64,000 nt of DNA from Dehalococcoidia bacterium (GCA_965218875.1 OZ244707.1:2000504-2064503); one strand, 5' to 3'; counted from the first letter of the stretch, positions 4,321 through 58,782 are shown. Made by a program: numbers and translations. The notes: generated from the sequence alone by a model not told the origin.

Positions 4321-5358
4321 CTAGCCCAGGGTCAGGCCCGGGTCTATGTCCAAGTCCAGACCGAACTGCTGCCCGCGCCGGTATTGATAGTAGGCGCAGG
4401 CGGCTATCATCGCGCCGTTGTCGGTGCATAGGATGGGCGCGGGAACGATGACGGGAAGGTGGGAACGCCGGGCTACCTCCTGGCGCAGCAGGGCGTTGGC
4501 CGCGACCCCTCCGGCGAGGACCAGCCCCTTCGCCCCGTACTGCCCGGCCATGTCCAGTAGCTTCCGAGACAAGACGTCCACCACCGAGTCCTGGAATGCC
4601 GCCGCTAACTCCCGGACCGCCTCTCCGGCCTCCGGGCCAGTCAGGGCCTCGCTGGCCTGGGGGTATAGCCCCTGGTCCCGGGCCAGGTGCAGCATGGCTG
4701 TCTTAACCCCGCTAAAGCTAAAGTCCAGGGTGTCCCTCATCCAAGCCCGGGGCAGATGGTGGTGGCCGGCCGCGCCCTCGGCCGCCCGTTGAATCTCCGG
4801 GCCGCCGGGAAAGCCCAGTCCCAGGATGCGCGCCGCCTTGTCGAAGGCCTCCCCCGCCGCGTCGTCCCGGGTCCGCCCCAGCAGGCGGTAGTCGCCGTGG
4901 CCCTGCATCAGTATCAGGTCGGTGTGGCCGCCGGAGGCTATCAGGCAGGCCAGCGGAAACCCGGGGTCTTCCGCCGGGTCCCCCGGTCCCAGCCAGGAGG
5001 CATAGATGTGGGCCTCCAGGTGGTTGACCCCCAATAGGGGCGCGTCCAGGGCGAAGGCCATGGCCTTGGCGGCGTTGAGCCCGGTGATCAGCGACCCGGC
5101 CAAGCCGGGCCCATAGGTCACCGCCACCGCGTCCACGTTTTCCAGCGGCAAGCCGCTGCCGGCCAGGGCTTTCTCCAGCACCGGCGCCAGGTCCCGGACG
5201 TGCTGACGGGAGGCCACCTCGGGTACTACGCCGCCGTACTGGGCGTGCAGCTCCACCTGCGAGGAGATGACGTTGGAGCGGACCCGCCGGCCGTCGGCCA
5301 CGACGCCGATGGCCGTCTCGTCGCAGGAGGTCTCGATGCCCAGAATGTTCAAGCTCAT
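4321..5358 (-). CDS. tsaD: tRNA N6-adenosine threonylcarbamoyltransferase TsaD (Kae1/Gcp family)
   Basis: MSLNILGIETSCDETAIGVV...QYGGVVPEVASRQH...GPGLAGSLITG is the canonical TsaD signature. I start at ATG 5358; the 145-aa upstream extension in the track ORF has no homology-like content. Confidence 0.9.
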   Translation of the reverse strand: MSLNILGIETSCDETAIGVVADGRRVRSNVISSQVELHAQYGGVVPEVASRQHVRDLAPVLEKALAGSGLPLENVDAVAVTYGPGLAGSLITGLNAAKAMAFALDAPLLGVNHLEAHIYASWLGPGDPAEDPGFPLACLIASGGHTDLILMQGHGDYRLLGRTRDDAAGEAFDKAARILGLGFPGGPEIQRAAEGAAGHHHLPRAWMRDTLDFSFSGVKTAMLHLARDQGLYPQASEALTGPEAGEAVRELAAAFQDSVVDVLSRKLLDMAGQYGAKGLVLAGGVAANALLRQEVARRSHLPVIVPAPILCTDNGAMIAACAYYQYRRGQQFGLDLDIDPGLTLG

Positions 5359-21272: not shown

Positions 21273-22491
21273 AGGACGATTGCAAAGTCAGAGAAGGAGG
21301 TTTATATAAGGCAGGTAAGAGATAGAAGAGATAGGGGAGGGTGAGGATATGGAGGCGGCGGAATCTCTGTTCAAGTGCTTGGAGCAAGTGCCGGACCCCA
21401 GGAGAGCCAGGGGAGTCCGCCATCCCTTCCAAGCCGTACTGCGTCTGACCCTGCTGGGGTTGGTCTGTGGTCAGACTACCATGGCCCACATCGCCCACTT
21501 CGCCAAGATGCACTGGCCGGGGCTGAGGGAGCCTCTGGGGTTTGTTCGGGACCATCCGCCCCACGCCACCACCATCTCTCGCACCCTGGCAGGGGTGCCC
21601 TATGAGCAGTTGCAGGGAGCCCTGACCGGCTGGGTGTCCCACGTGGTGGCGGAGCAGGAATTCAATGCCTCGGTGGACGGCAAGTGGGCCAAGCAGTCCG
21701 AGGACGCCAACGGGAATCCCCTGGTGATGGTGAACGTGCTGGCCCATGACCTGAAGTTGTGTTTAGCCCAGTGGCCGGCGTCGAAGAAGCGGTACGAACC
21801 TGGGGTGTTGCGGGAACAACTGGGCCGGCTGTTCGGGGACTATCCTGGCCTGCGGCTGCTGACCATGGACGCCCTGTATGCGGAGCGGGACTTGTGCCGA
21901 GCCATAGTCAGCCACCGGCGGGACTATCTGGTGCGAATCAAGGGCAACCAGCCTGAGGCGCTGGCTGCAATAAAAGACGGGTTTGCCGGGGAGGAACTGG
22001 AGGAGCCGCAGGCGGAGACCCTGGAAAAAAAGCGGGTGTGATCGAGCGGCGGCGGATCTGGACTGATGACGTACTGGCCGACTACATCCGGGAGGAGTTG
22101 GAGTTTCCCGGGGCGAGGCAGGGGGTGATGGTGGAGAAGGAGACGGTGGCTATAGCCACCGGGGAGGTAAGCCGGGAGCGCTGGTATCTGCTGACCAGTC
22201 TGAGTTCCCGGCAGTGCGGCCCAGCAGAACTGCTCCGGGCGTTCCGCAACCACTGGAGCGTTGAGAACAGCCTGCATCACGTGAAGGACCGCAGTTGGGA
22301 TGAGGACGTCCACACACTTCGCCGTCCCGGCCTGGGTGAGATATATGCCACCCTCGCCAAACACCGCCTGAACTCTGTCGGTGGCCACCATACCGCTGTC
22401 TCCCTACCCGGGATTAAAAAATCGGCAGAAAACTGTAGTCAATATTATGGGTAAGGGGTGCTTGCCGGTCAACTGCCAACGTGTCACTCCC
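21273..22491 (+). mobile_element. ISAs1-family insertion sequence (about 1.22 kb)
   Basis: Contains the transposase. The unit length of 1219 bp is defined by the offset between the two 138-bp copies. Terminal inverted repeats are only weakly recognisable. Confidence 0.7.
21349..22454 (+). CDS. ISAs1-family (H-repeat-associated) transposase in two frames (21349..22041 and 22038..22454)
   Basis: N-terminus FKCLEQVPDPRRARGVRHPFQAVLRLTLLGLVCG (DDE_Tnp_1_assoc-like). C-terminus HWSVENSLHHVKDRSWDEDVHTLRR...ATLAKHRLNSV. The frames switch by -1 at GAA AAA AAG (22024..22032). Confidence 0.8.
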
Positions 22492-22742: not shown

Positions 22743-23555
22743 TTGGAACAGCACGCCAGTCCCTCTCTTTCGGAGGCCCTGACCAGGTTCATGGTTTCAA
22801 AGAAAAACGGCAAGGGAGGAGCAACCGACCACTCGGAATTGGGACGCTTCGTGGCCTGGTGCGGACGGGAGAGAACCGTGATGGATGTGTCCCCGTCGGA
22901 AGTTGCCGACTACGCCCAGCACATCGGCCTGGGAGGAGTCGAGTCGGCCCAAAGATTGACTCCCGTAAAAGCGTTTCTTGGCTACTGGAAGGACGAGGGC
23001 TGGATTGAGACCGGGCTGGCCGCCCACCTCCGGTTGCCCAGGTCCCGCCGCAACAGCGCCAGGAAGGGCGGCGGCGTTTCTGCGCCCGAGGCCACCCAGT
23101 TGAGCCAGGAGGGGTACGATCGTCTCATGGGGCAGCTCGCCGACCTGAAGGCGGAAAGGGCCGGCGTGACCGAGGACATCCGGCGGGCCATGGAAGACAA
23201 GGACTTCCGGGAAAACGCGCCGCTGGACGCCGCCAAAGAGCGGCAGGGCATCATCGAATCGAGAATTAGGGAGCTGGAGGCCGGCCTGACCAACACCCGG
23301 ATCATGAACGACCGGCCGGCTAAGCCCCGGCAGACCTCGGCTGTTGGCGCCAAGGTGACCCTGAAGGACGCGGCGTCGGGCAAGAGGTTGGCTTATACCC
23401 TAGTAGACGTCCGCGAGGCCGACGCGGAATCAGGCAAGATATCGACCACCTCTCCCGTGGGGCAGGCCCTGATGAACCGGGTCGTGGGCGACGAGGTAGT
23501 TATAAACGTGCCCAAGGGGACGCTGCGCTATACCGTCGAGCGCGTGGAGGGTTAA
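22743..23555 (+). CDS. GreA/GreB-family transcript cleavage factor with an integrase-SAM-like N-terminal extension of about 110 aa
   Basis: C-terminal 160 aa: LSQEGYDRLMGQLADLK...DKDFRENAPLDAAKERQGIIESRIRELE...GAKVTLKD...YTLVDVREADAESGKISTTSPVGQALMNRVVGDEV. N-terminus: LTRFMVSKK...VSPSEVADYAQHI...VKAFLGYWKDEGWI. TTG start with GAGGAGG upstream. Confidence 0.75.
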   Translation: MEQHASPSLSEALTRFMVSKKNGKGGATDHSELGRFVAWCGRERTVMDVSPSEVADYAQHIGLGGVESAQRLTPVKAFLGYWKDEGWIETGLAAHLRLPRSRRNSARKGGGVSAPEATQLSQEGYDRLMGQLADLKAERAGVTEDIRRAMEDKDFRENAPLDAAKERQGIIESRIRELEAGLTNTRIMNDRPAKPRQTSAVGAKVTLKDAASGKRLAYTLVDVREADAESGKISTTSPVGQALMNRVVGDEVVINVPKGTLRYTVERVEG

Positions 23556-23628
23556 CGCGCCGGCGCTCTGACGGACCGGGGTGCGGACGGCCCCAGCCCC
23601 AAAAAGGGGCCCCAGGCAAGTCCAACGC

Positions 23629-23655
23629 GAGAGGCCCGGACAATCCGGGCCTCTC
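23629..23655. terminator. Strong hairpin between convergent genes (possible bidirectional terminator)
   Basis: GAGAGGCCCGGA-CAA-TCCGGGCCTCTC is a perfect 12-bp stem, followed on the plus strand by GTCTTGT. It lies 7 nt past the peroxiredoxin stop on the minus strand. No clean U-tract. Confidence 0.45.
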
Positions 23656-23661
23656 GTCTTG

Positions 23662-24126
23662 TCAGGTCAAGCCCTCCACTATCTTAAGTATCTCCTCAGT
23701 GTCCGGAAGCGTTCCGGGGGCGTACGTCTGCCTGTGGCGTATTACCCCCTGCTTGTCCACCACCACCACTGCCCGCGTACCTGCTCCGCGTTCCTCGTTC
23801 CAGAGCTCATAGGCTTGGGTGGCTCGGCCCTTGGGATGAAAGTCCGACAACTCCGGGTAGGTGAGACCGCCCATGGAGGCGGACCAAGCCCGGTGGGAGT
23901 GGACCGAATCGCAGCTTATGCCCAGAACCTGGGCATTCTTCTCGTCGAACCGGCTGTTGGCCTGCCGGAACGCCATCGCTTGGGTCGTTCAACCGGAGGT
24001 GAAGTCGAAAACGTGGAAGGAGAGCACCACGGCTTTCTCGCCCCGGAAGGAACTCAGGATCACGTCGCCGTGGTCCACGGAGGGCAAGGTAAACTCGGGT
24101 GCGGCATCACCAACTTGCGCAGGCAT
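23662..24126 (-). CDS. Bcp/PrxQ-type peroxiredoxin with in-frame TGA (probable selenocysteine) at the peroxidatic position
   Basis: ATG 24126 (GAGG upstream) gives MPAQVGDAAPEFTLPSVDHGDVILSSFRGEKAVVLSFHVFDFTSG, then TGA (23991..23989), then TTQAMAFRQANSRFDEKNAQVLGISCDS... in the same frame. The track lists only 23662..23976. Confidence 0.75.
23946..23972 (-). promoter_or_regulatory. Candidate bacterial SECIS hairpin
   Basis: mRNA CGUUCCGGC-AGGCCAACA-GCCGGUUCG has a 5-bp GC stem, a 2x2 internal loop and 2 further pairs. It starts about 17 nt after the UGA. Folded by eye only. Confidence 0.3.
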
Positions 24127-24279
24127 AGGCCAACCTCAACTAGGGCCCTGGGCATGGCCCCGGAGTAGGCCCGCCCTTGGGCGACGGGCCGCAGGAATTA
24201 TACCCCACAAAGCGAAGGGCCCGCCTCCTGCTTGGCACTGTCGTTCCCGCCGGCGTTCCTGCCCGCCTGTGGGCGTCCC

Positions 24280-24798
24280 CTAGCCAAGGCCAGGGGAGTG
24301 GTCGTTGGAGAATCCCGCCGGCGATGAATCGCCAATCTGCAGCGCCGCATTGCCGGTCAGAGACCTCAACCGGGCCCGCTGGTCCCCGTCTTCGATGGTG
24401 AACTGCCGAGGGCCCTCCGCCCGCACCTCCTCTATCTCCGAGAGAAAGTCCTCTATTTCGGCCATGAAAAATCGTATCTCATCGCCCCGCATCCGATTCT
24501 CATAGAAGTTACGGTGCAAGGAGTCGCCGTGCAGGATGGAAGTAAGAATCGACGGCTTCTGAAACTCTTGAGCAAGTTGGGCGCCAACGTCCATGACCTG
24601 CCGGTGATGGATGTTGTTCCATCCCCGTTCCTTGGCCACGGACTTGAGGGCATGGGCCACCGCGGCCCAGGCCTTCTCCGAGGCTTGGAGCCGGTGGCCC
24701 TGGGCAAGCTCCGCACTGGCTTGGGCCAGGAAGCCCCGGCTTATGGCTACGTGGTCCTCGGGGCTGGAAGCCCCGGGCTCAGGCAATGCGCTCGTCAT
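24280..24798 (-). CDS. PaREP1/HEPN-like helical protein
   Basis: GHRLQASEKAWAAVAHALKSVAKERGW...ILHGDSLHRNFYEN shows the same pattern as the 20789..21172 product. A perfect TATAAT (24831..24826 on minus) and AAGGAA precede the ATG. Confidence 0.5.
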   Translation of the reverse strand: MTSALPEPGASSPEDHVAISRGFLAQASAELAQGHRLQASEKAWAAVAHALKSVAKERGWNNIHHRQVMDVGAQLAQEFQKPSILTSILHGDSLHRNFYENRMRGDEIRFFMAEIEDFLSEIEEVRAEGPRQFTIEDGDQRARLRSLTGNAALQIGDSSPAGFSNDHSPGLG

Positions 24799-26632: not shown

Positions 26633-28198
26633 CTAGTCGGGCGTGGCGCCCAACGGCGGGGCCTCGGCCGATTCGTCGGCGGCCAGCATCCGGTTGATGG
26701 CGCTCAGGTAAGCCTTGGCGCTGGCCACCACGATGTCGGTGTCCGCGCCACGGCCGGTGTAGGTCTTTCCCTCTTTTTCGATGCGCATGGTAACCGTGCC
26801 CAGGGAGTCGATGCCCTCGGTTGCCGCCTGCACGTTGAAGTCCACCAGCTTGTTGGTTATGCCGATGGCGCGGTCCATGGCGTTGCAGATGGAGTTAACC
26901 GGGCCGTTGCCGGTGGCGGCGTCGGTGAAGGAGTTGCCCTCGGCGTCGGTGAGCCGCACCGTGGCCGTGGCCACGCCGTGGTCGCCGCCGCTGAACTGCA
27001 CCTGCTCCAGGGTATAGCTGGCCGTCTCGCCGGCCTCCCGCTGCTCCTCGTCCATCAGGATTTCCAGGTCGCGGTCGGTCACCTCCCGCTTCTTGTCGGC
27101 CAACACCTTGAACGACTCGAATACGTTGGAGATTTCCTCCCGGGATAGCGAGTAGCCCAGGGACTCCAACCGGGACTGCAGTCCGGCGCGGCCGCTCAGC
27201 TTGCCCAGCACCAGGCTGTTGCCCGGCACGCCCACCCGTTCCGGTTGCATGACCTCATAGGTGGAGCGGTCCTTCAGCACCCCGTCCTGGTGAATTCCCG
27301 AGGCGTGACGGAAGGCGTTCTCGCCCACGACCGCCTTGTTGGACTGCACCGCCATGCCGGTGATGCGGCTGACCATGCGCGAGGAGGGGTAAATCTGCGT
27401 GGTGTCGATGTCTATGTCCACGCCGAAGTGGTCCTTGCGGGTGTCCAGGGCCATGATGATCTCTTCCAACGAGGCGTTGCCGGCCCGCTCGCCGATGCCG
27501 TTGATGCACCCCTCGACCTGCCGCGCGCCCACCTCGATGGCGGTCAGGCTGTTGGCCACCGCCAGGCCGAGGTCGTTGTGGCAGTGGACGCTGAGCACCA
27601 CGTCGTCTATGCCCGGCACCTTCTCCTTGATGTCATGGAGCATCTTGGCAAACCCGTTGGCCGAGGGTATGGCGTAGCCCACGGTGTCGGCGATGTTGAC
27701 GGTGGTGGCCCCGGCGCGGATCACCTCGGCCAGCATCTGGTAGAGGTACTCCGGGTTGGTGCGGGTGGCGTCCATGGGGGAGAACTCCACGTCGGAGCAG
27801 TAGCTCTTGGCCCGCTCCACCATAGCCACGGCCAACTCCATAACCTCTTCCCGGTTCTTGCGCAGTTGGTGCATCTGGTGAATTTCCGAAGAGGAGAGAA
27901 ACACGTGGACCCGGGGCCGCTCCGCGTGCTGGACGGCCCGCCAGGCCTGGTCCACGTCGTTGGGATGGGCCCGGGCCAGGGAGGCGATGATGGGCCCCTT
28001 GACCTCCTTGGCGATGTTGGAGACCGCCTCGAAGTCGCCGGGAGAGCTGGCGGCGAACCCGGCCTCGATGATGTCTACCTGCATACGCTGCAACTGGCGG
28101 GCGATCTCCATCTTCTCGGCGCCGGTCATGCCGATGCCGGCCGATTGCTCGCCGTCGCGCAGCGTGGTGTCCAATAGCAATACCTTGTTTTGAGCCAT
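26633..28198 (-). CDS. leuA: 2-isopropylmalate synthase
   Basis: [29 protein letters not shown] and a C-terminal LeuA dimerisation/regulatory domain (521 aa). Confidence 0.92.
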
Positions 28199-28425
28199 TT
28201 CCCTTTCCTACCTAGATGTTAGTGGATAGCAGTTGGCGGTTAGCCGTTGGTTGCCGGCGGATGGTGGTTAGAAGCCCGGCAGGGTCACGTAGTCCGCCAC
28301 GCCCAGCCCGGCCAGGACCAGCGCGCGACGGCAGACTACTCTCAACGTCTCCTGTGTCATGATTTTCTCCATTTAATATTAGCAGCCCCGCCTTGGTAAC
28401 CACCGCTCGACGGGCCGAATACCCA

Positions 28426-30461: not shown

Positions 30462-32153
30462 CTAAAGCCCCTGCGACGAGGGCTCCTCCCGCATGTCGCC
30501 CACCGACTCCCCGGCGGGAATCATAGGGTAGACGTTCTCGTCCTCCTTCACCCGGAAGTCGATTATCACCGGGCCGGGGGTCTCCATGGCTTCCTGAATT
30601 GCGTTGGCCACGTCGCCCTTTTCCGTCACCCGGATGCCCCGGATGCCGTAGGACTCGGCGATTTTGACGAAGTCCGGGTTGCCGCTGTACACGGTGGCAA
30701 AGTAGTCCTTCTCGTAGAACAGGTCTTGCCACTGGTGCACCATCCCCAGGGCCCCGTTGTTCAGAATGGCAAACTTCACGTCGATGCCGTGCTCCACCGC
30801 CACGGCCAGGTCGCACATAGTCATCTGGAAGCCGCCGTCCCCGGCAATGGACCACACCGTCTTGTCCGGGCGGCCCACCTTGGCGCCGATGGCCGCCGGG
30901 ACCTCGAATCCCATGGCTCCCAGGCCGCCCGAGGTAATCATGGTGTTGGGCTGGCGGAACCTGCAAAACTGGGCGGCCCACATCTGGTGCTGGCCCACCC
31001 CGGTCACGATGATGGCCTCCCCCTGGGTAACGTCGGAAAGCTCCTTGAGCACGAACTGAGGCAGCAACCGTTCCGTTTCCCGGATTTGAAGCGGGGGATG
31101 CTCCGCCCTGAGCCTATCGACGCGCCGCAGCCAGTCCAGGTGCACCGCCGGGTCGACCAGGGGAACAAGCTGCTGGAGGACTCGCTTGAGGTCCCCCACC
31201 ACCGGCGCGTCTGCCTTGACGTTCTTGCTCATCTCCGAAGGGTCGATGTCCACGTGGACGATCTTGGCCTGGGGAGCGAAGTCCTTCAGCCGCCCCGTCA
31301 CCCGGTCGTCGAACCGCATTCCCAGGGATATGAGCAGATCGGCCTGGTCGATGGCCAGGCTGGCGTGGGCCATGCCATGCATTCCCGGCATTCCCAGGTT
31401 CAGGTAGTGGCTGGTGGGGAAGGAACTGATGCCCAGCAGGGTGGTAATTACCGGGAGCTGGGCCTTCTCCGCCAGCTCCGCCAGCTCCTCGTAGGCGTGG
31501 GAAATAAGCACCCCGTGGCCGGCCAGGACTATGGGCCGCTCCGCCCGGTTGATCAGATCGGCCGCCTGGGCCACCTGTTGCGGGTCGGCGTCGCCGGGGG
31601 GATTGTAGCCGGCCAGGCTGACGGAGTCGGGCCAAACGAACTCGGTGCGGTCGTCCAGGAGCACGTCCTTGGGTATGTCCACCAGCACCGGGCCCGGCCT
31701 GCCGGTGCGGGCGATGTGGAACGCCTCCTTGATGGCCGGGGCCACGTCGGCCACGTCCATCACCAGGTAGTTGTGCTTGGTGATGGGCAGGGTTATGCCG
31801 GTAACGTCGGTCTCTTGAAAAGCGTCGCGGCCGATGGCCGGCCGGGGCACCTGGCCCGTAATGGCCACCATGGGGACCGAGTCCATCTGGGCGTTGCAGA
31901 TGCCGGTGACCAGGTTGGTGGCGCCGGGCCCCGAGGTGGCCAGGCACACGCCCACCTTGCCGGTGGCGCGGGCGTATCCATCCGCGGCCATGGCTGCCCC
32001 CTGCTCGTGGCGCACCAGCATGTGGCGCAGGCCGGGGTACCCGGCCATGGCGCCGTAGAGGGGCAGCACCGCGCCGCCGGGCAGGCCGAAGACCACGTCC
32101 ACCCCCTCCTTCAACAGGCTCTCACATACGATTTCCGCGCCGGTTAGCTCCAT
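30462..32153 (-). CDS. ilvB: Acetolactate synthase large subunit (biosynthetic)
   Basis: MELTGAEIVCESLLKEGVDVVFGLPGGAVLPLYGA...HEQGAAMAADGYARATGKVGVCLATSGPGATNLVTG. I start at ATG 32153 (GGAGAG upstream) because the track start at 32189 abuts the T-box terminator U-tract. Confidence 0.92.
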   Translation of the reverse strand: MELTGAEIVCESLLKEGVDVVFGLPGGAVLPLYGAMAGYPGLRHMLVRHEQGAAMAADGYARATGKVGVCLATSGPGATNLVTGICNAQMDSVPMVAITGQVPRPAIGRDAFQETDVTGITLPITKHNYLVMDVADVAPAIKEAFHIARTGRPGPVLVDIPKDVLLDDRTEFVWPDSVSLAGYNPPGDADPQQVAQAADLINRAERPIVLAGHGVLISHAYEELAELAEKAQLPVITTLLGISSFPTSHYLNLGMPGMHGMAHASLAIDQADLLISLGMRFDDRVTGRLKDFAPQAKIVHVDIDPSEMSKNVKADAPVVGDLKRVLQQLVPLVDPAVHLDWLRRVDRLRAEHPPLQIRETERLLPQFVLKELSDVTQGEAIIVTGVGQHQMWAAQFCRFRQPNTMITSGGLGAMGFEVPAAIGAKVGRPDKTVWSIAGDGGFQMTMCDLAVAVEHGIDVKFAILNNGALGMVHQWQDLFYEKDYFATVYSGNPDFVKIAESYGIRGIRVTEKGDVANAIQEAMETPGPVIIDFRVKEDENVYPMIPAGESVGDMREEPSSQGL

Positions 32154-32189
32154 GTTCTCTCCGTGACCTTGGCCCTGATTTTTGGCCAC

Positions 32190-32461
32190 AAAAAAACCGT
32201 CCCGTGAAGGGACGGGTCAGTTTGTTCCCGCGGTACCACCCTTCTTTTTCGGCAGGCCATGCCCCGGTGCTGCCGAAACAACTCAAAGACTTTTAACGGT
32301 GTCTGCCGCCACACCCTACTTTACCCTTGACGGGGGGTTCAGGTAGGCCGCTCCCGGGCGAGTTCGGAGCAGCGCCGCCGCCGGCTTGCACCAGCCGCCG
32401 ACTCTCTGGGGCGGGTACGCCTACTACTCCCGCTCATAGCGGATTTTGTGAATGTCGTAGC
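32190..32461 (-). promoter_or_regulatory. T-box leader (probable Leu, CUC specifier) of the ilvBNC-leuA operon
   Basis: Minus strand: GCUAUGAGCGGGAGUAGUAGG (stem I base), CCAGAGAG bulge, GAA-CUC-G in the specifier position (codon at 32362..32360), T-box GGGUGGUACCGCGGG (32227..32241 on plus), and terminator CCGUCCC-UUCAC-GGGACGG plus U7. Confidence 0.85.
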
Positions 32462-46387: not shown

Positions 46388-46603
46388 ATGAACACCAACG
46401 AAAGTTCCATCCGCCACGAAAGAGAGCCTACCGAAAATGCGTTGCCATCCAATACCTCGACGGAGCTTAGCGACCTTGAAAAGAGGCTGTCAGAACTACG
46501 TGCCCAGGGAATCCTGAGCGGAGGTGACGGACCTAGAGAAGCCCTGCGCCCCGTCGCTCACGTTCCTGGCGCCTTGGAGCGATTTCTCAAAGCAAGAGCC
46601 TAG
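46388..46603 (+). CDS. Putative antitoxin of the downstream PIN toxin
   Basis: A 71-aa acidic/helical ORF ends 20 nt before the PIN gene, the arrangement typical of VapB-VapC pairs. No fold was recognised from sequence. Confidence 0.4.
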   Translation: MNTNESSIRHEREPTENALPSNTSTELSDLEKRLSELRAQGILSGGDGPREALRPVAHVPGALERFLKARA

Positions 46604-46623
46604 CCACTGGTGACCAAGAGCCC

Positions 46624-47028
46624 ATGACACCACAAATGCCGTTGGTAGCTTATGTCGACCCGTCCGCGTTGATTTCCGAAGTTCTAGACGAAGAGCTGTT
46701 TCAGAGTTCCACTCGCCAGCGACTTGATGCGTTCCCGCACCTGATGTCATCGAACTTTCTTGAGGCTGAGTTGCGGGTAGCATTTAAGCGGGAACAGGAG
46801 GACTTCGACACAAGTTCGATATCCAGCATCGCTTGGATTTTCCCGGATCGCAGGGTGGACATTGAAATGGCGAGAGTGTTGGAAATCTCCGAACTCTCAC
46901 CCGCTCGCGTTTGGCACCTTGCCACGGCGTTATTTTTCGCAGAGGTCTTGCAGAGTGAGATGGCTTTCATCACACTGGACGAGCAGCAGGAAACCGTGGC
47001 ACGCGAGCTGGGTTTTCCGATTCCATAG
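46624..47028 (+). CDS. PIN-domain ribonuclease toxin (VapC-like)
   Basis: 134 aa with acidic residues spaced as in PIN domains: VAYVDPSALI (D), NFLEAELR (E), WHLATALF and AFITLDEQ (D). Confidence 0.65.
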   Translation: MTPQMPLVAYVDPSALISEVLDEELFQSSTRQRLDAFPHLMSSNFLEAELRVAFKREQEDFDTSSISSIAWIFPDRRVDIEMARVLEISELSPARVWHLATALFFAEVLQSEMAFITLDEQQETVARELGFPIP

Positions 47029-47039
47029 GGAGAGCAACT

Positions 47040-48575
47040 ATGCCGACACTGGATTTCAAGGGTAAGCAGCATGTCTACGCTCACCACCTGACCGTTCCCT
47101 ACCGGCCGCTGGTTGCCGACGTTGAGCGTTCGCTGAACCCGGCAGACGTTGACGACAACCTCATCATCCACGGCGATAACCTGCACGCGCTGAAGGCGTT
47201 GCTGCCCCGATACGCTGGCAAGGTGAAGTGCATCTACATCGACCCCCCCTACAACACAGGCAACGAGGGTTGGGTTTATAACGACAGAGTGAACAGTCCT
47301 CTACTCAAAGAATGGCTCAAAGACCAAAGCCCGGTTGACAACGAGGATCTTGAACGTCACGACAAGTGGCTGTGCATGATGTGGCCCCGCCTTCACATAC
47401 TCAAAGAACTGCTGTCGGATGACGGGGGTTTTTTTATATCCATTGACGACAACGAGCAGCACCATTTGCGGATGCTGATGGATGAGATTTTTGAAGAAAG
47501 CAATTTCCGTAATATTTTCGCAGTTGCTCGTATGAAGAAGAACATTAGAGAGCGTGAACACATAAGAGCATTAAACGAAGGGTATAACTTTGTTCTGTTT
47601 TATTCCAAATCCACGGATGGGTTGATTATACCGCCGACTACATTTCAAGAAAAGGCAGCACGTTGGCACGCTTTTGATGCACCCGGAATTCGTCCGTCAA
47701 TGGAGTACGAACTCTTTGGGACCACTCCCTCAATTGGAAGGCATTGGATGTATTCCCAAGAGAGGGCGGAAGAACTCGTTGCTGATGGCAAACTACGCCC
47801 CAATCCCCGTACTGGTACTCCACAATATTTGCTTGACGCCAGTACCAGCACAATGCTAGACACTAACTGGACGGACATTCAGGAATACGATACGCGCTTT
47901 AACTTTCCTAACGGAGAGAAGAACGCAGGTCTTATTCGGCGAATCTTAACTATGCTTGATGACCCGGATGCCGTCGTCCTCGACTCCTTCGCTGGCTCCG
48001 GCACAACGGCCCACGCTGTTCTGGCACTGAATCAAGAGGATGGCGGCAACCGCAAGTTTATTCTGGTCGAGTGCGAGGACTACGCAGACACCATCACCGC
48101 CGAGCGGGTACGCCGGGTTATCAATGGGGTGCCCGATGCTAGGGACGCCTCGCTAAAGGAAGGGCTTGGCGGCTCCTTCACCTACTGCACGCTGGGCGAA
48201 CCGATTGACGTGGAGGGAATGCTTGCCGGCGACTCGCTGCCGGAGTATTCAGCGCTGGCAGCCTACCTGTTGCATACATCGACCGGGATTTCTGCCGGTG
48301 TGGGCGCAATCGGACCACAGGACGACGACGGCCTGTTTTATAGCAGCGACATCACCAATTACCACCTGTTGTATGAACCCGACGTGGATTATCTTAGTAA
48401 CAACGAAGGGATGCTGAACGAGGAGCGGGCAAGGCGCATCAGCGCTCTTAGCCGACAGGACGGCAAGAGAGCTATCGTCTTCGCTCCGGGCAAGTACATC
48501 GGGCAGCGGGAGTTGACGTCCCTGGGCATCACCTTCTGCCAATTGCCTTACGAGATACACAAGGCGGGGCAATAG
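47040..48575 (+). CDS. mod: Type III restriction-modification methyltransferase (Mod; N6/N4 beta-class)
   Basis: LIIHGDNLHALKAL, IYIDPPYNTG (motif IV), HDKWLCMMWPRL, and motif I VLDSFAGSGTTAHA after a variable TRD-like middle region. Confidence 0.88.
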   Translation: MPTLDFKGKQHVYAHHLTVPYRPLVADVERSLNPADVDDNLIIHGDNLHALKALLPRYAGKVKCIYIDPPYNTGNEGWVYNDRVNSPLLKEWLKDQSPVDNEDLERHDKWLCMMWPRLHILKELLSDDGGFFISIDDNEQHHLRMLMDEIFEESNFRNIFAVARMKKNIREREHIRALNEGYNFVLFYSKSTDGLIIPPTTFQEKAARWHAFDAPGIRPSMEYELFGTTPSIGRHWMYSQERAEELVADGKLRPNPRTGTPQYLLDASTSTMLDTNWTDIQEYDTRFNFPNGEKNAGLIRRILTMLDDPDAVVLDSFAGSGTTAHAVLALNQEDGGNRKFILVECEDYADTITAERVRRVINGVPDARDASLKEGLGGSFTYCTLGEPIDVEGMLAGDSLPEYSALAAYLLHTSTGISAGVGAIGPQDDDGLFYSSDITNYHLLYEPDVDYLSNNEGMLNEERARRISALSRQDGKRAIVFAPGKYIGQRELTSLGITFCQLPYEIHKAGQ

Positions 48576-48585
48576 GGGGTTGGTC

Positions 48586-51126
48586 ATGGAATTGAAAGAT
48601 TACCAAGCCAATGCCCTCGAAGCCTTTACTGCTTGGCTGGATGCGCTCACTTCGGCCCGGTTACAGTCCCAGGCAGCCATAGACGCACTGAGACAGGCCG
48701 GTCCGGCTATCACGATTTCCGATGAACTCTACAACTATCCGAAGATTGCGTGGCAACAGCTGAAGGACGCTGGCCGTGTCGCGGATACCGTCGGCGAGTA
48801 CGTCAGCCGGACCGATGACGCCAATCGGCCTGTTCCCCATATTTGCTTCAAGGTGCCTACGGGAGGTGGTAAGACCCTTCTTGCTGCTGCTGCGTTGCAG
48901 CGGCTTCGGCGGCAAACCGGCCTGACGCTGTGGGTGATGCCAACACGGGCTATATACCAACAGACTAAAGCCGCATTGCGGAGCCGGGAACATCCCTACC
49001 GGCAAATGCTGGAAATCGCCAGTGCCGGGCGGGTCAAGCTGTTGGAAAAGGATGACTTGTTCACCCGGTCAGATATAGAGAATTACCTTTGCGTGATGTT
49101 GTTGATGTTGCCGGCCGCTAACCGGCAGCAAGGGCGCGACTTTTTGCGTATGTTCCGTGATTCGGGGCGTTATCCCACGCTTTTCCCGGACAGCGACGAC
49201 TTGCTTGGCGACGCCAGGCTGCTCAACGACTATTCCGACTTGGAGCGGATTACAGACGACGGCCCTGTTAAACACAGTCTTTTCAACGTGTTCAAGATGC
49301 TGCGCCCTGTGGTGATACTGGACGAGGCGCACAAGGCCTATGGCGCGTCTAATCTGGACGCTAACCAAGAGTTCGCACGCTCGGTCAGCCGCCTTGACCC
49401 CAGCCTCGTGATTGAGCTATCAGCCACCCCCAACCGAGGGATCAGCAACCTGCTGGTTGATATTACCGGGGTGGAACTGCACAACGAGGAGATGATCAAA
49501 CTGCCGGTTCAGGTGACGTCCTTCACCAACGCCGACTGGCGCTACACGCTGGCGCAGGCCCACGACGAGTTGGAACGGCTTGACGCCGAATCGACATCGT
49601 TGCAGATGAGCGAAGGCCGGTACATTCGTCCTATGGCCGTAGTGCGGGTGGAGCGCACGGGCAAAGACCAGCGCGACGGCGAACACGTTCACTCCGAGGA
49701 CGTCAGGGAGTATCTCACCCAGAACCTTGGGGTCCCGGAAAACTCCATTGCCGTTAAGTCCTCTGAGTTGGACGAATTGGGTCGTGACGACCTGTTGTCG
49801 GAGTTTTCACCAGTACGATGGGTAATCACCAGGGCCGCTCTTATGGAAGGTTGGGATTGTCCCTTCGCCTACCTGTTGGTGATGTTGGACAACACCCGCG
49901 CCCAGCGGGCTATTACCCAGTTGGTGGGCCGCGTGATGCGCCAGCCTAATGCCCGGCGCACCGGCCGGGAGGTGCTGGACCAATGCTACGTCTATTGCTG
50001 GAATACCAGCGTGGGAGATGCTGTGGGGCAGGTTAAACGGGGCTTGGAAGAAGAGGGCCTTACAGGGCTGGGCGATGCCGTGATCAGCGGCTCGACGAAT
50101 TTCCGGCGTATCACCCTGCAAAGACGCGAGGAGTTGAAGGGAAGGGATATATTCTTGCCCCTGGTTTTGCATCAGCATGGTGAAGGGTGGGGTGAGTTGG
50201 ATTACCAGAGCCATATCCTGCCCGGAATCGATTGGAACGGAATCGAGTCTCCCGACCCGAAAAGCAGCCTCCCTGACCGGGCTGTTCGGCAATCTGCGAG
50301 CGTCTATTTGGGCGATGCCCCTCCTGTTTTTCACCCCGAAAGAGAGTTGGACATTGCCAAAGAGGTCCAGATAAATTGGTTTGCCCGCCGCTTATCGGAT
50401 GTACTTCCAAATCCGTGGCAAGCGGCACGCCTTGCACAGCAGTTTGTGGAGAAACTACGGGCTGCCGGAGATGCTGAAGACGAAATTTACGACCGCCGCT
50501 CTTACCTAGCCTTCGCTCTGCGGGATTACGTGGCGGATCAGTTGCAACAGCAGGCGGAAAGAGTTTTTCGAGCTAAATTGAAGGAAGGCCAAATACGCTT
50601 TGACTTGGAAGCAGGCCACCCGAATTTCCGCATGGTCGAAAGCTACGAAATTCCTATAACCAGCGATGCGGCGCTTCTGGCGGGGAATGACGGGAGACAG
50701 GTGCAACTTAGCCTGTTTGAACCCGTCTATGTACAGCAGTTCGATTCAACTCTAGAACGGAACTTCGCCCGCTATCTCGATGAACAGAAGGCGCTGAAAT
50801 GGTGGCACCGGGTGGCAGTAAGACAACGTGGCGATTACTATCTCCGGGGCTGGAAACAGGAACGGATTTGGCCTGATTTCGTGGCCATGGGCGGTAAAAC
50901 CGAAGGCAAGCCCCAGGTCCTAGTCTTCGAGACCAAAGGGGAGCATCTCCGCGATAACCCGGACACGGACTACAAGCAGCGGGTGCTTGAGACGCTGGAA
51001 AATGCTTTCAACTACGGAAGAATGACCATCAAAGACGGGCCGGCCAAAGGTACATTTCGTCTCGTGTTCAACGAAACCGAGTTCCCTGAAGCGTTGGCAA
51101 TGCTTGAGGGGGCTTACAAGGTCTGA
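48586..51126 (+). CDS. res: Type III restriction endonuclease subunit (Res; SF2 helicase plus C-terminal PD-(D/E)xK-like nuclease)
   Basis: Walker A FKVPTGGGKT, DEAH-type VILDEAHKA, motif VI QLVGRVMR, and a C-terminal IWPDFVAMG...VFETKGEHL nuclease-like motif. Confidence 0.88.
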   Translation: MELKDYQANALEAFTAWLDALTSARLQSQAAIDALRQAGPAITISDELYNYPKIAWQQLKDAGRVADTVGEYVSRTDDANRPVPHICFKVPTGGGKTLLAAAALQRLRRQTGLTLWVMPTRAIYQQTKAALRSREHPYRQMLEIASAGRVKLLEKDDLFTRSDIENYLCVMLLMLPAANRQQGRDFLRMFRDSGRYPTLFPDSDDLLGDARLLNDYSDLERITDDGPVKHSLFNVFKMLRPVVILDEAHKAYGASNLDANQEFARSVSRLDPSLVIELSATPNRGISNLLVDITGVELHNEEMIKLPVQVTSFTNADWRYTLAQAHDELERLDAESTSLQMSEGRYIRPMAVVRVERTGKDQRDGEHVHSEDVREYLTQNLGVPENSIAVKSSELDELGRDDLLSEFSPVRWVITRAALMEGWDCPFAYLLVMLDNTRAQRAITQLVGRVMRQPNARRTGREVLDQCYVYCWNTSVGDAVGQVKRGLEEEGLTGLGDAVISGSTNFRRITLQRREELKGRDIFLPLVLHQHGEGWGELDYQSHILPGIDWNGIESPDPKSSLPDRAVRQSASVYLGDAPPVFHPERELDIAKEVQINWFARRLSDVLPNPWQAARLAQQFVEKLRAAGDAEDEIYDRRSYLAFALRDYVADQLQQQAERVFRAKLKEGQIRFDLEAGHPNFRMVESYEIPITSDAALLAGNDGRQVQLSLFEPVYVQQFDSTLERNFARYLDEQKALKWWHRVAVRQRGDYYLRGWKQERIWPDFVAMGGKTEGKPQVLVFETKGEHLRDNPDTDYKQRVLETLENAFNYGRMTIKDGPAKGTFRLVFNETEFPEALAMLEGAYKV

Positions 51127-51174
51127 TCACGGGCGCAGTTGTCCAAGCCGCCAGGCGGCGCCCCAAACCAATAC

Positions 51175-54466: not shown

Positions 54467-55342
54467 TTGGAATGGATTGATTACGAAGCGCCCAAGACCA
54501 TCGCGGAAGCTGTGAGCCTCATGGCTTCCAAGGGAGACCGAGCCAAAGTCATTGCCGGCGGCACCGACATCCTGGTGAACCTCAGGGTGGGCCGGCGCGG
54601 CGCTGACCTGCTGGTGGACGTGAAGGCAATCCCCGAAGTTAACGAGTTGTCCTATAGTCCTCAAAGCGGGCTGGTGCTGGGAGCGGCGGTCCCCTGCTAC
54701 CGTATCTACGAGGACCAAACCGTAGCGTCCGCCTACCCCGGGCTCATCGACGCGGCCTCGCTGATCGGCGGCATCCAAATCCAGGGGCGCGCCAGCATCG
54801 GCGGCAACCTGTGCAACGCCGCGCCCAGCGGAGACTCTATTCCTCCGGTCATCGTGCTGGGCGGTGTATGCAACATCGTCGGCCCCAACGGCAGCCGGCA
54901 GGTGGCGGCGGAAGACTTCTGCACGGCCCCCGGCCGCAGCGTTCTGCAGGACGGAGAAATCCTGGTCTCGATCAATATTCCCGCCCCGCAGGCCCATTCG
55001 GGCGCCAACTACCTGCGGTTCATCCCCCGCAACGAGATGGACATTGCCGTCGCCGGCGTGGGCAGCTCGGTGGTGCTGGACGCCTCCGGCCAGAACTTCG
55101 TGTCGGCCCGCATCTCCCTGGCGTCGGTGGCGCCCACCCCGGTGCTAGCCGCGGAGGCCGGGGACAGTCTGGCGGGTCAGCCGGTCTCCGAAGCGTCCGT
55201 ACAGGCGGCCTCGGAAAAAGCCATGGCCGCCGCCTCGCCCATCAACGACATGCGGGGCACCATCAGGCAGCGGACCCACTTGGTCGGAGTCTTGACCCGG
55301 CGCACCTTGAATAACGCTATCGAACAAGCTAGAGGTGGATAA
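54467..55342 (+). CDS. Xanthine dehydrogenase/CO dehydrogenase family FAD-binding medium subunit (CoxM-like)
   Basis: KVIAGGTDILVNLR, GASIGGNLCNA and a C-terminal CO_deh_flav_C-like region (NDMRGTIRQRTHL). TTG start with GGAGGTG upstream. Confidence 0.88.
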   Translation: MEWIDYEAPKTIAEAVSLMASKGDRAKVIAGGTDILVNLRVGRRGADLLVDVKAIPEVNELSYSPQSGLVLGAAVPCYRIYEDQTVASAYPGLIDAASLIGGIQIQGRASIGGNLCNAAPSGDSIPPVIVLGGVCNIVGPNGSRQVAAEDFCTAPGRSVLQDGEILVSINIPAPQAHSGANYLRFIPRNEMDIAVAGVGSSVVLDASGQNFVSARISLASVAPTPVLAAEAGDSLAGQPVSEASVQAASEKAMAAASPINDMRGTIRQRTHLVGVLTRRTLNNAIEQARGG

Positions 55343-55344
55343 CA

Positions 55345-55818
55345 ATGCCTGGAGTAACCCACGTACAAACGACAATCAACGGTGAGCCGGTCAACTTTCT
55401 GTGCGAGCCCCGGCAGAGCCTGCTGGAGTGCCTGCGGGACGTGCTCGGCATGACCGGCAGCAAGGAAGGGTGCAACGACGGCAACTGCGGCGCGTGCACC
55501 GTGCAGTTCGACGGCAGGATCGTGGACTCGTGCCTGGTCCTCGGCGTAGAGGCGCAGGGCAAGGAAATCTCGACTATTGAAGGTATGGCAACCCCCGAGG
55601 GGTTGCACCCGTTGCAGCAGGCCTTCCTGGAACAGGCGGCTTTGCAGTGCGGCATCTGCACCCCCGGTTTCCTAGTGGCGGCCAAGGCGCTGCTGGACCA
55701 GGAACCCGACGCCGATGAGGCTCGGATCCGCCATTGGCTGGCGGGCAACCTGTGCCGGTGTACCGGCTACGACAAAATCGTCAGGGCGGTGCTGCAAGTA
55801 TCTCAACCAGGCAGCTGA
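55345..55818 (+). CDS. (2Fe-2S)-binding small subunit (CoxS-like)
   Basis: [12 protein letters not shown] and QCGICTPGF...CRCTGY, the two [2Fe-2S] cysteine clusters of this family. Confidence 0.92.
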
Positions 55819-55830
55819 GGTGAGAGACAA

Positions 55831-58122
55831 GTGACCTCTAACCAAGGGACCTCCAACGTAGTACTGTCCGAAGTCGAATACCGGGTCGTGGGCCAGCGGC
55901 CCATACGCCCCGATGGCGTGGACAAGGTCACCGGAAGGGCGCAGTACGGCGCCGACGTGACCCTGGCGGGCCTCCTCCACGGGAAGGTCCTGCGCAGTCC
56001 CCACGCCCACGCCAGGATAGTGTCCATCGATACCTCCCGGGCCGAAGCCCTGCCCGGGGTGAGAGCCGTGGTCACGGCGAAAGACCTGCCCTTCTCCGGG
56101 CTTTCCAAAGAGGAGTTGGGAGGCGACTACCTGAGGTTCAAGTTCGCCAGCGACCACGTGTTGGCCAGCGACAAGGTGCTGTTCAAGGGCCATCCCGTGG
56201 CGGCGGTGGCGGCGGTCAACCAGCACGTAGCCGAGGAAGCGGCCAAGCTGGTCTCGGTGGTCTACGAGGAGCTTCCCGCCGTGTTGGACGTGCGGGAATC
56301 GATGCGGGAAGACGCGCCCTTGCTTCACGACGGACTGCACACTTCTTCCCTGGGCGAGACCTCGGAGCGGTCCAGCAACGTGGCTGCCCATCTTCGCTAC
56401 GAGAAGGGCGACGCGGAACAGGGCTTCGCCAAGGCCGACGTGGTGGTGGAGCGGGAGTTCACCACCGCCCCGGTGCACCAGGGCTACATAGAGCCCCACA
56501 ACGGCACCGCCTTCTGGAACGCCGACGGCCAGTTGAACATCTGGACCAGCACCCAGGGCGCGTTCCAGGTAAGGGCCGCCGTCGCCGACGTCCTGCGGCA
56601 GCCGGTGTCGAAAATCAAGGTTACGCCCATGGAAATCGGCGGCGGGTTCGGCGGCAAGATACCCGCCTACCTGGATGCCATTGCCGCCACGCTGTCCCGC
56701 AAGACCGGGTCTCCGGTAAAGATAACCATGAGCCGCATCGAGGTGTTCGAAGGGTCCGGGCCGGCCCCCGGCTCTTGGGCCAAGATTAAGGTGGGGGCCA
56801 CCAGGGACGGCCGGCTGACCGCCTGCCAGGCGACCATGGCTTTCGAAGCCGGGGCGTACCCGGGATCGCCGGTGATGCAGGGCATTACGTGCGCCTTCGG
56901 CTGCTACGACGTGCCCAACGGCTTGGTCGACGGCTACGACGTTGTGGTCAACAAGCCCAAGTCGGCGGCCTACCGGGCCCCCGGCTCGCCCCAGGCGGCC
57001 TTCGGCGTCGAGTCGGTAATGGACGAAATCTGCGGCCGGTTGGGCATCGATCCCATAGAATTCAGGCTCATCAACGCCGCCAAGCAGGGGACCCGCCGGA
57101 TCGAAGGGCCGGCGGTGGCCCGCATCGGGTTGGTGGAGTGCCTGGAGGCGGCCCGCGACCACGAGCACTACAAGACCCCGGTGGGAGACGGAAACCGCGG
57201 GCGCGGCGTGGCCTGCGGGTACTGGATGAACCGTTCCTTCCAGTCCAGTCTTTCCATGACCGTAAACTACGACGGGACCATAACCCTGATCATGGGCTCG
57301 GTGGACATCGGCGGCACCCGGGCGTCCATCGCGCAGCAGACAGCGGAGGCCTTGGGCATCTCCTACGAGGACGTCAAGCCCACCGTGGTGGACACCGATT
57401 CCATCGGCTACACCTTCATCACCGGCGGCAGCAGGACCTCCTTCGCCACCGGCTGGGCGGCCATCGAGGCCGCGGAGGACGTGAAAGCCCAGATGGTCAC
57501 CAGGGCCGCCAAGATCTGGGACACCCAGCCCGAAGACGTAGAGTATGCCGATGGGGTCATTCAACACACGTCGGACCCGGAATTGCGGATGACCTTCAAG
57601 GAGTTGGCCAGGCAGTTGGGGGCCACCGGCGGCGCGATCACCGGGGCTTCCAACGTGGAGCCCACCGGAGAGGGCAACGGCTACGCGGTCCACCTGGTGG
57701 ACCTGGAGGTCGACCAGGAAACCGGCAAGGTCGAGATCCTCCGCTACACCGCAATCCAAGACGCCGGCAAGGCCGTCCATCCCAGCTACGTGGAAGGGCA
57801 GATGCAGGGCGGTGTGGTGCAGGGAATCGGGTGGGCCTTGAACGAGGAGTACTTCTTCAACGACAAGGGGCACATGCTCAACTCCAGCTTCCTGGACTAC
57901 CGCATGCCCACCTCCCTGGACCTGCCCATGATCGACACGGTCATTGTGGAAGTGGCCAATCCGGGCCACCCCTATGGAGTCCGGGGCGTTGGCGAGGTGC
58001 CCATAGTTCCCCCCATGGCCGCCATCGCCAGCGGCATCAACGGGGCCACCGGGGCGAGGCTGCAAAGCCTCCCCATGACCCCGGGCAAGATACTGGAAGC
58101 CGCCTGGGACCAAGAAGACTGA
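55831..58122 (+). CDS. Molybdopterin-binding large subunit of a xanthine dehydrogenase-family enzyme (CoxL-like)
   Basis: [34 protein letters not shown], and C-terminal [19 protein letters not shown] did not see the form I CO-dehydrogenase active-site loop, so the substrate is left open. Confidence 0.9.
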
Positions 58123-58146
58123 GCGTCAGCCACTGGAGGCGCAGCA

Positions 58147-58782
58147 ATGGCCATCAGCACGTTCCGCCGGGTCGTTACCGAGGTTGACCAGCTAAGGGAA
58201 ATACTGGGCCACCCCATGGAGATGGCGGTCCAGAAGCAGATATCGGCCCTTGACCACCACTGCCGCGATTTCATAGCCCGGTCCCCGTTCTTGCTCATCG
58301 GCACCGCCAGCGGGGCTGGAGTCTGCGACGTTTCCCCCAAGGGCGACCCCACGGGGTTTGTCCAGGTCCTCGACGACAACACTCTGGTTATCCCCGACCG
58401 CCCGGGCAACCGCCGGGCCGACACCCTGACCAATATCCTGGAGAACCCCCAGGTCGGGTTGCTCTTCATGATTCCCGGAATCGAGGACACGCTCCGGGTG
58501 AACGGCCGCGCCCACATTGTGCAAGACGAGGACCTCCTAGAGCGCACGGCCGTCCGAGGGAAGAAGCCCCTGCTTGCCATTGTGGTGGAGGTGGAGGAGG
58601 CGTTCCTCCACTGCGCCAAGGCCTTCAAGCGCAGCCGGCTCTGGGACCCCGAGTCCCAGGCGCCCCGGGGCGAGCTGGCGACGCTGGCCAAGATGGTCAT
58701 GGACCACACCGGCTACGACGCTTGCACCCTCGACGAGCTGGAGGAGAAGGTGGAGGAGTCCTACAAGACGGACCTCTATTGA
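58147..58782 (+). CDS. Pyridoxamine 5'-phosphate oxidase-like FMN-binding split-barrel protein
   Basis: SPFLLIGTASGAGVCDVSPKGDP...VIPDRPGNRRADTLTNILENPQVGLLF matches the PNPOx-like family pattern. Confidence 0.75.
   Translation: MAISTFRRVVTEVDQLREILGHPMEMAVQKQISALDHHCRDFIARSPFLLIGTASGAGVCDVSPKGDPTGFVQVLDDNTLVIPDRPGNRRADTLTNILENPQVGLLFMIPGIEDTLRVNGRAHIVQDEDLLERTAVRGKKPLLAIVVEVEEAFLHCAKAFKRSRLWDPESQAPRGELATLAKMVMDHTGYDACTLDELEEKVEESYKTDLY

Follow-up and report, generated by a model that had tools for sequence, protein, structure and literature searches.

Peroxiredoxins (Prx) containing selenocysteine (Sec) have been known since 2001. Bacterial Prx with a TxxU motif constitute an established selenoprotein family (PMC1794560; tabulated in PMC13188914), and the first-pass annotation of the gene described below correctly treated Sec-containing Prx-like proteins as an existing class. 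The canonical recoding signal of bacteria (bSECIS, E. coli fdhF type) is a folded RNA element that lies within the coding sequence, immediately 3' of the UGA. The bSECIS consensus model is that of Zhang and Gladyshev (summarised in PMC13188914, Fig. 2A); the criteria applied here were a loop of 3–9 nt, a G in the first two loop positions, a spacing of 16–37 nt and a minimum free energy (MFE) of ≤ −7.5 kcal/mol. According to BSepDB, 12.6% of bacterial selenoprotein genes are without a canonical SECIS (PMC13326102), and a 2026 review considers it probable that there are distinct bSECIS classes (PMC13188914). A search of a limited literature collection did not find a description of a Sec-containing Prx of the AhpE type, or of a distal SECIS in a Prx gene.

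The window, a stretch of 64,000 nucleotides from a Dehalococcoidia bacterium, carries on its minus strand a complete Prx gene (24126..23662) of 154 codons (M1 to T154, with U46) plus a terminal TGA. A Shine-Dalgarno-like GAGG (24137..24134, minus) lies 7 nt 5' of the ATG (24126..24124). The frame runs through 45 sense codons (MPAQVGDAAPEFTLPSVDHGDVILSSFRGEKAVVLSFHVFDFTSG), an in-frame TGA (23991..23989, minus) and 108 further sense codons (TTQAMAFRQ...GISCDS...EGLT) to the stop codon TGA at 23664..23662. All this can be read directly and agrees with the first-pass annotation, which had also noted that the whole gene escapes ORF calling: the ORF listing shows it as no more than two fragments, 23989..24126 (45 aa) and 23662..23976 (104 aa), and the public gene call on a near-identical contig is split into the same two. 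With the TGA read as a residue, the protein matched the Pfam family AhpC-TSA (PF00578) over residues 5–131, across the TGA, with 118.1 bits (E 2.9e-34) against a cut-off of 26, so that the continuity of the Prx domain is far beyond chance. The same start methionine was found in 80 of 80 orthologues.

A sequence search of the PDB returned AhpE of Mycobacterium tuberculosis (Rv2238c) as the six top matches (E 7e-24, ∼33–35% identity); enzymes of the Prx1 type came next by a modest margin (E 2e-20), and the matches to Bcp were far weaker than those to AhpE. Codon 46 aligns with the peroxidatic Cys45 of AhpE, Thr43 with Thr42 and Arg118 with Arg116. An AF2 model, built on 22 homologues, had a pLDDT of 84.4 and a pTM of 0.83, and Foldseek searches with this model again gave AhpE chains as the best matches, with TM-scores of 0.88–0.89 normalised either way. 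All top Foldseek matches were peroxiredoxins with the thioredoxin-like Prx fold, the Prx1-type enzymes being longer. None of the NCBIfam models reached its cut-off for this protein: the scores were 61.9 versus 270 bits for PrxU (NF040737), 54.7 versus 140 for BCP (PRK09437) and 29 versus 298 for Prx-SUH. Since AhpE was the best match in both sequence and structure and the PrxU, BCP and Prx-SUH models stayed below their cut-offs, the protein is, as judged from alignments and a predicted model, a short AhpE-like peroxiredoxin and not a Bcp/PrxQ. The earlier alignment to Bcp/PrxQ thus did not use the closest characterised relative, but it put the TGA in the right place: the codon coincides with AhpE Cys45 (motif T43-S-G-U46).

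The likeness to AhpE (1-Cys subfamily; PDB entries 1XXU, 1XVW, 4X0X and 5C04) extends to the length of 153–154 aa, the absence of a C-terminal extension in both, the T-x-x-C(U) motif, the catalytic Arg and the YP.LSDF.P.G motif. The two differ in the replacement of Cys45 by Sec and of the active-site Pro by Val39; moreover, His38 of the window protein occupies the position mutated in the F37H variant of 5C04, and AhpE is without Cys72 (GISCD), which is invariant in the clade of the window protein. The Pro of the PxxxTxxC motif is Val39 throughout this clade, in Sec and Cys forms alike, whereas other Sec-Prx clades in our metagenome set keep it. The window protein shares superfamily (PF00578), TxxU motif and Sec at the peroxidatic position with PrxU of Eubacterium acidaminophilum, but is shorter, of the AhpE type and not a PrxU equivalog. 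With Bcp/PrxQ it shares the thioredoxin fold of Prx and a TxxC at the equivalent position; however, the resolving Cys of the CxxxxC motif is absent, as U46 is followed by TTQAMAF and position +5 is not a Cys. By analogy with the family, the Sec46 selenolate would attack the peroxide, activated by Thr43 and Arg118, and yield a selenenic acid, which would then be reduced by a thiol partner, possibly via a selenenylsulfide with Cys72; the invariant Cys72 might act as a resolving residue. Some close homologues are labelled 'mycoredoxin-dependent peroxiredoxin' by JGI; neither mycothiol nor mycoredoxin is expected in Chloroflexota. No partner gene for the reduction of the Prx was evident among the flanking genes.

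Orthologues were collected by a scan of one genome per species, which gave 80 loci, almost all under the label Dehalococcoidia, Chloroflexota or SAR202. TGA was present at the catalytic codon in all 80, and the 45 codons upstream were conserved in frame. A divergent query against metagenome contigs returned many Prx clades, with TGA at the catalytic codon of 51 loci and TGC or TGT at that of 14. Conservation of the UGA thus extends to at least 80 species of Dehalococcoidia and to several further Prx clades.

Synonymous variation was 0.8–1.0 of expectation over nearly the whole gene and was suppressed only in codons 45–70. The codon for Gly45 (23992..23994, minus), immediately 5' of the UGA, was GGT without exception (76 of 76 sequences), even though Gly is preferably encoded by GGC in these genes; Phe53 was TTC in 75 of 76 and Arg59 was CGG in 63 of 68. 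Further downstream, in a hairpin designated H2 below, Asn64 was encoded by the non-preferred AAT in 72 of 72, Ala65 by GCC in 72 of 75 and Gln66 by CAG in 74 of 76. The octamer GGUUGAAC was invariant, and no convincing pairing partner for it was found by RNAalifold or an all-against-all column-pair scan over −36..+111; over this range RNAalifold recovered H2 only, and the pair scan was dominated by third-position purine/pyrimidine noise. The fixed GGT of Gly45 could reflect a context need for Sec decoding or avoidance of RF2. The 72 nt past the UGA were compared with synonymous recodings and gave a mean z of −2.55, with 84% of the sequences below −1.64, versus −0.28 for a control region within the gene; the window's own 72 nt are modestly more stable than their recodings (z −1.37). 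For the 51 nt between the UGA and H2, the same comparison yielded a z of −2.03 in Sec forms with H2 (n = 109) and −2.04 in Cys forms with H2 (n = 6), versus 0.00 in Cys forms without H2 (n = 14).

The constrained segment contains two hairpins. The first, H1 (23975..23943, minus), has the arrangement TGGCG-TT-CCGGC-AGGCCAACA-GCCGG-TT-CGACG, in which CCGGC (23968..23964) and GCCGG (23954..23950) form the upper stem around the loop AGGCCAACA, and 23975..23971 and 23947..23943 form the lower stem. It starts 21 nt past the TGA, or 14 nt when the lower stem is included, and its MFE in the window sequence is −12.5 kcal/mol. In the window, H1 agrees with the bSECIS model in every respect, with a spacing of 25 nt from UGA to loop, a 9-nt loop that starts A-G-G, a 5-bp stem and −11.7 kcal/mol. 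A conforming hairpin at 16–37 nt was, however, present in just 29 of 80 distinct orthologues (36%) versus 28% of the control codons in these genes, and the bSECIS criteria were set aside as a discriminating test here. The fold of the single 70-nt sequence past the UGA was likewise discarded as evidence for a SECIS; it is no more stable than dinucleotide shuffles (z +0.38). Taken alone, H1 is within chance by both measures, and the support for it therefore comes from comparative data. Its pairs were formed in 81.7% of cells of an alignment of 76 distinct sequences, and its covariation was 0.215 versus 0.108 for shuffles (0 of 500) and ≤0.126 for slid controls. Compensatory pairs were seen at 33-45 (GC 46, CG 17), 24-54 (CG 57, UA 10, GC 2) and 34-44 (CG 37, UA 9). 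The first-pass annotation had pointed to a hairpin 17–43 nt downstream of the TGA: the hairpin exists, at approximately that location, and folding of the single sequence did not bear it out as a signal, while covariation among orthologues lends it support.

The second hairpin, H2 (23936..23918, minus), has the form AUGCCCAG-GUU-CUGGGCAU with an 8-bp stem; it starts 53 nt past the UGA and its loop lies at 60 nt. It coincides with codons 64–70 (AAT GCC CAG GTN CTG GGC AT), which pair without mismatch over 8 bp around a GUN loop; 99.7% of the alignment cells are paired, and the MFE in the window sequence is −11.5 kcal/mol. The position of H2 is fixed, because the Gln of the QVLGIS motif always stands 20 codons past the catalytic site, also in the Prx clades from metagenomes. 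Through these metagenome contigs H2 could be tested outside the clade and the codon usage of the window. At least 7 of the 8 pairs were kept in 37 of 44 distinct Sec forms versus 6 of 20 Cys forms (Fisher p 4e-5). Of the six Cys forms that keep H2, four are members of the same H[VI]F.FT.G clade as the window protein and may plausibly have converted from Sec to Cys in recent times; the link between H2 and Sec depends in part on this assumption. Compensatory changes were found as AGCCAG...CTGGCT, where Ala to Ser goes together with Gly to Ala (loci L119 and L121), as ACCCAG...CTGGGT, as UCCCAG...CUGGGA (L091, an AT-rich marine contig) and as CCCAA...UUGGG. The seven Sec forms without H2 all fall in a single clade, YVLAFTGGU (L130, L133, L140, L142, L158, L163 and L167), six members of which have a canonical SECIS-like hairpin with a spacing of 22 nt and the loop AGGCU; this clade offers a natural control for the evolution of the signal.

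The top of H2, CAG-GUU-CUG, resembles the apical CAGGUCUG of the E. coli fdhF SECIS. In SelB-binding hairpins such as that of fdhF, G-U opens the loop, as it does in H2. At 60 nt, H2 lies beyond the 16–37 nt range of the bSECIS model (PMC13188914). Like the canonical element, the constrained segment of this family is structured and lies within the coding region directly past the UGA; it differs in that about 75 nt with two hairpins are under constraint and that H1 is non-conforming in most orthologues. Comparative sequence analysis thus points to a composite structured element of ∼70 nt that appears tied to the Sec codon and is possibly a non-canonical SECIS. In the reading that we prefer, recoding would be directed by the ∼70 nt past the UGA, the sole part of the gene with frozen synonymous sites. 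At the mRNA channel entrance, H1 would fold into a spacer, and its folding would bring H2, the likely SelB-binding hairpin, within reach.

A selenoprotein gene in which H1 alone serves as the SECIS is the alternative that survives best. H2 would then be an unrelated feature of the mRNA, with an effect on stability or on the speed of translation, for example, or it would result from the conserved NAQVLGI peptide together with codon bias. The full conformity of the window's H1 to the bSECIS model and the real compensatory changes within it fit this explanation, as do the persistence of H2 in four Cys forms and the YVLAFTGGU clade, which has a canonical hairpin at 22 nt and lacks H2. The near-background frequency of conforming hairpins among the orthologues (29 of 80) argues against it, and so does H2 itself, with its near-complete pairing, the invariant but non-preferred AAT, compensatory changes across clades and an integrity that follows Sec versus Cys. 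On balance, we regard H1 acting alone as possible but not probable. The extension of the composite to most Sec-Prx clades, the window's included, as a bipartite SECIS with an invariant SelB-binding H2 fixed 53–71 nt downstream and a covarying H1 spacer, is offered tentatively and with considerable doubt. If true, it would define a distinct bSECIS class with a spacing about twice the maximum of the current model, and part of the selenoprotein genes without canonical SECIS could be accounted for.

The UGA might also be read as Trp, Cys, Arg or Gly, by near-cognate decoding or a lineage-wide reassignment, in which case the product would not be a selenoprotein. This would agree with the absence of Sec-machinery genes from the 64-kb window and with the W found at the site in some database entries, but in the two that were checked, of ten aligned, the W proved to be TGA translated under another genetic code. 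TGA serves as a stop codon in the Prx gene itself and in 12 of 80 orthologues, and it terminates the small and large subunits of a xanthine dehydrogenase (XDH)-family enzyme in the window at the ends of their profiles; as the Prx gene itself ends in TGA, the code has not been reassigned. The site is, moreover, that of the catalytic Cys, and the codon is TGC or TGT in four orthologues (L088, L089, L090 and L093), one of which (L088) is syntenic with the window (leuA...Prx...greA...Mrp). Together with the conserved structured RNA 3' of the codon and the Sec pathway catalogued for the closest relatives (see below), these observations make insertion of a standard amino acid very improbable. A pseudogene, a gene broken by a nonsense mutation, or a sequencing or assembly error, as the 45-aa and 104-aa pieces of the ORF callers might suggest, has a negligible probability: the same TGA recurs in 80 independent species-level assemblies and 51 metagenome contigs, the frame remains intact with a pairwise pN/pS of 0.27 in codons 1–45 versus 0.24 in codons 47–146 (pS ∼0.65, near saturation), and the ATG that opens the 104-aa piece is shared by no more than 3 of 76 sequences.

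Both halves of the gene are thus under equal purifying selection, and no decay of the frame after the TGA was seen in relatives. In most sequences no ATG occurs past the TGA before codon 85, and the C-terminal piece therefore has no conserved start of its own. The results on the domain, conservation, selection, Cys orthologues and TGA stops jointly exclude, for practical purposes, a pseudogene, an assembly error and codon reassignment. We conclude, on the strength of the comparative sequence data, that 24126..23662 very probably encodes one AhpE-like Prx of 154 residues, in which Sec46 would be inserted at the UGA by a bacterial SelB/tRNA-Sec system. The proposal of the first-pass annotation that the gene specifies a selenoprotein and is not a pseudogene is in this way upheld, including the expected alignment of the TGA with the Cys of homologues.

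None of selA, selB, selD or tRNA-Sec was found within the 64-kb window, which contains no tRNA genes at all, and Rfam searches around the Prx gene gave nothing above noise even at E ≤ 10. The closest loci are those of Dehalococcoidia bacterium UBA1141 (L008) and isolate 10f4566d (L009), each 76% identical to the window protein. These organisms have 49 and 46 selenoprotein genes, respectively, and both rank by this number among the top ten bacteria of BSepDB (Table 2 in PMC13326102), a database that covers only species with a Sec pathway (PMC13326102). They provide strong, though indirect, evidence for Sec machinery in the present organism. By its sequence, the Prx gene would mark this organism as one that uses Sec, in keeping with the very large selenoproteomes recently reported for Dehalococcoidia. 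A relaxed scan for other Sec-TGA candidates in the 64-kb window produced off-frame artefacts only. The TGA codons at 55816..55818 and 58120..58122 were rejected as Sec codons; they are ordinary stops between the XDH small subunit, the large subunit and the next gene, and they mimic the selenoprotein signature because three consecutive genes happen to share one frame.

The finding of a Sec-Prx as such will not surprise a specialist, as such enzymes have long been known and large selenoproteomes of Dehalococcoidia were reported in 2026; the interest lies in the extent of the mis-annotation, in a scaffold of the AhpE type and in a two-hairpin signal that appears non-canonical. Among the best 120 homologues in a collection of 5.8 billion proteins, most are fragments of 87–105 aa that begin past the TGA, and the full-length homologues have W or C at the catalytic site. 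One fragment bears the NCBI name 'redoxin domain-containing protein'. Stored entries thus drop the catalytic residue of an antioxidant enzyme that is widespread in Dehalococcoidia and SAR202-type Chloroflexota. Gene callers routinely split Sec-Prx genes, and the practical gain is a correction of annotation with a wide reach. For the RNA downstream of the UGA, more than 100 sequences, contrasts between Sec and Cys forms and one clade with a canonical hairpin provide a natural data set on SECIS action from 60 nt; a SECIS that acts from this distance through a spacer hairpin is excluded by current prediction models.

The neighbours of the Prx gene are leuA, a gene for a polyketide-cyclase-like protein, PaREP1-like ORFs, a convergent GreA-like gene (22743-23555, plus strand) and Mrp/ParA. 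The Prx gene looks monocistronic. Scans around it found no sigma-70 promoter and called no intrinsic terminator, including at a GC-rich perfect stem with a short loop (23628..23656, minus; −31.4 kcal/mol, z −6.3) that begins 6 nt past the stop codon and lies between the Prx and the GreA-like gene. The terminator scan misses this stem-loop because it has no U-tract; it is probably a transcript end or a stabiliser, and may be a transcript-end structure for both directions. PaREP1 is a family first described in archaea. Matches to it (PF05942) were found in the small ORFs flanking the Prx gene at ∼24280-24798 and ∼22009-22392 (minus), and at 2179-2478 and 4585-4968 in locus L001. The upstream PaREP1-like ORF is a single ORF of 172 aa in the window and is divided into 99 and 61 aa on an ENA contig of 5x coverage.

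Elsewhere in the window, the only Rfam matches are two T-box leaders on the minus strand (2570-2844 and 32205-32446; 93.9 and 116.6 bits), each directly 5' of a gene for a TPP enzyme resembling the large subunit of acetolactate synthase (689-2494 and 30462-32216, minus). Two T-box-controlled ilvB-like paralogues are thus found within 30 kb, the second heading an ilv-leu cluster towards leuA (26633-28207). The XDH/aldehyde-oxidoreductase-family operon mentioned above (54467-58782, plus) encodes FAD, 2Fe-2S and Mo subunits and, after them, a PPOX-type flavoprotein; three consecutive genes in one shared frame are separated by the TGA codons at 55816-55818 and 58120-58122 only. Finally, a block of ORFs at ∼46500-51130 (plus), including one of 870 aa (48517-51126) that matches a type III restriction endonuclease only faintly, has a third-position GC content of 0.60–0.65 versus ∼0.85 elsewhere and may be horizontally acquired DNA.
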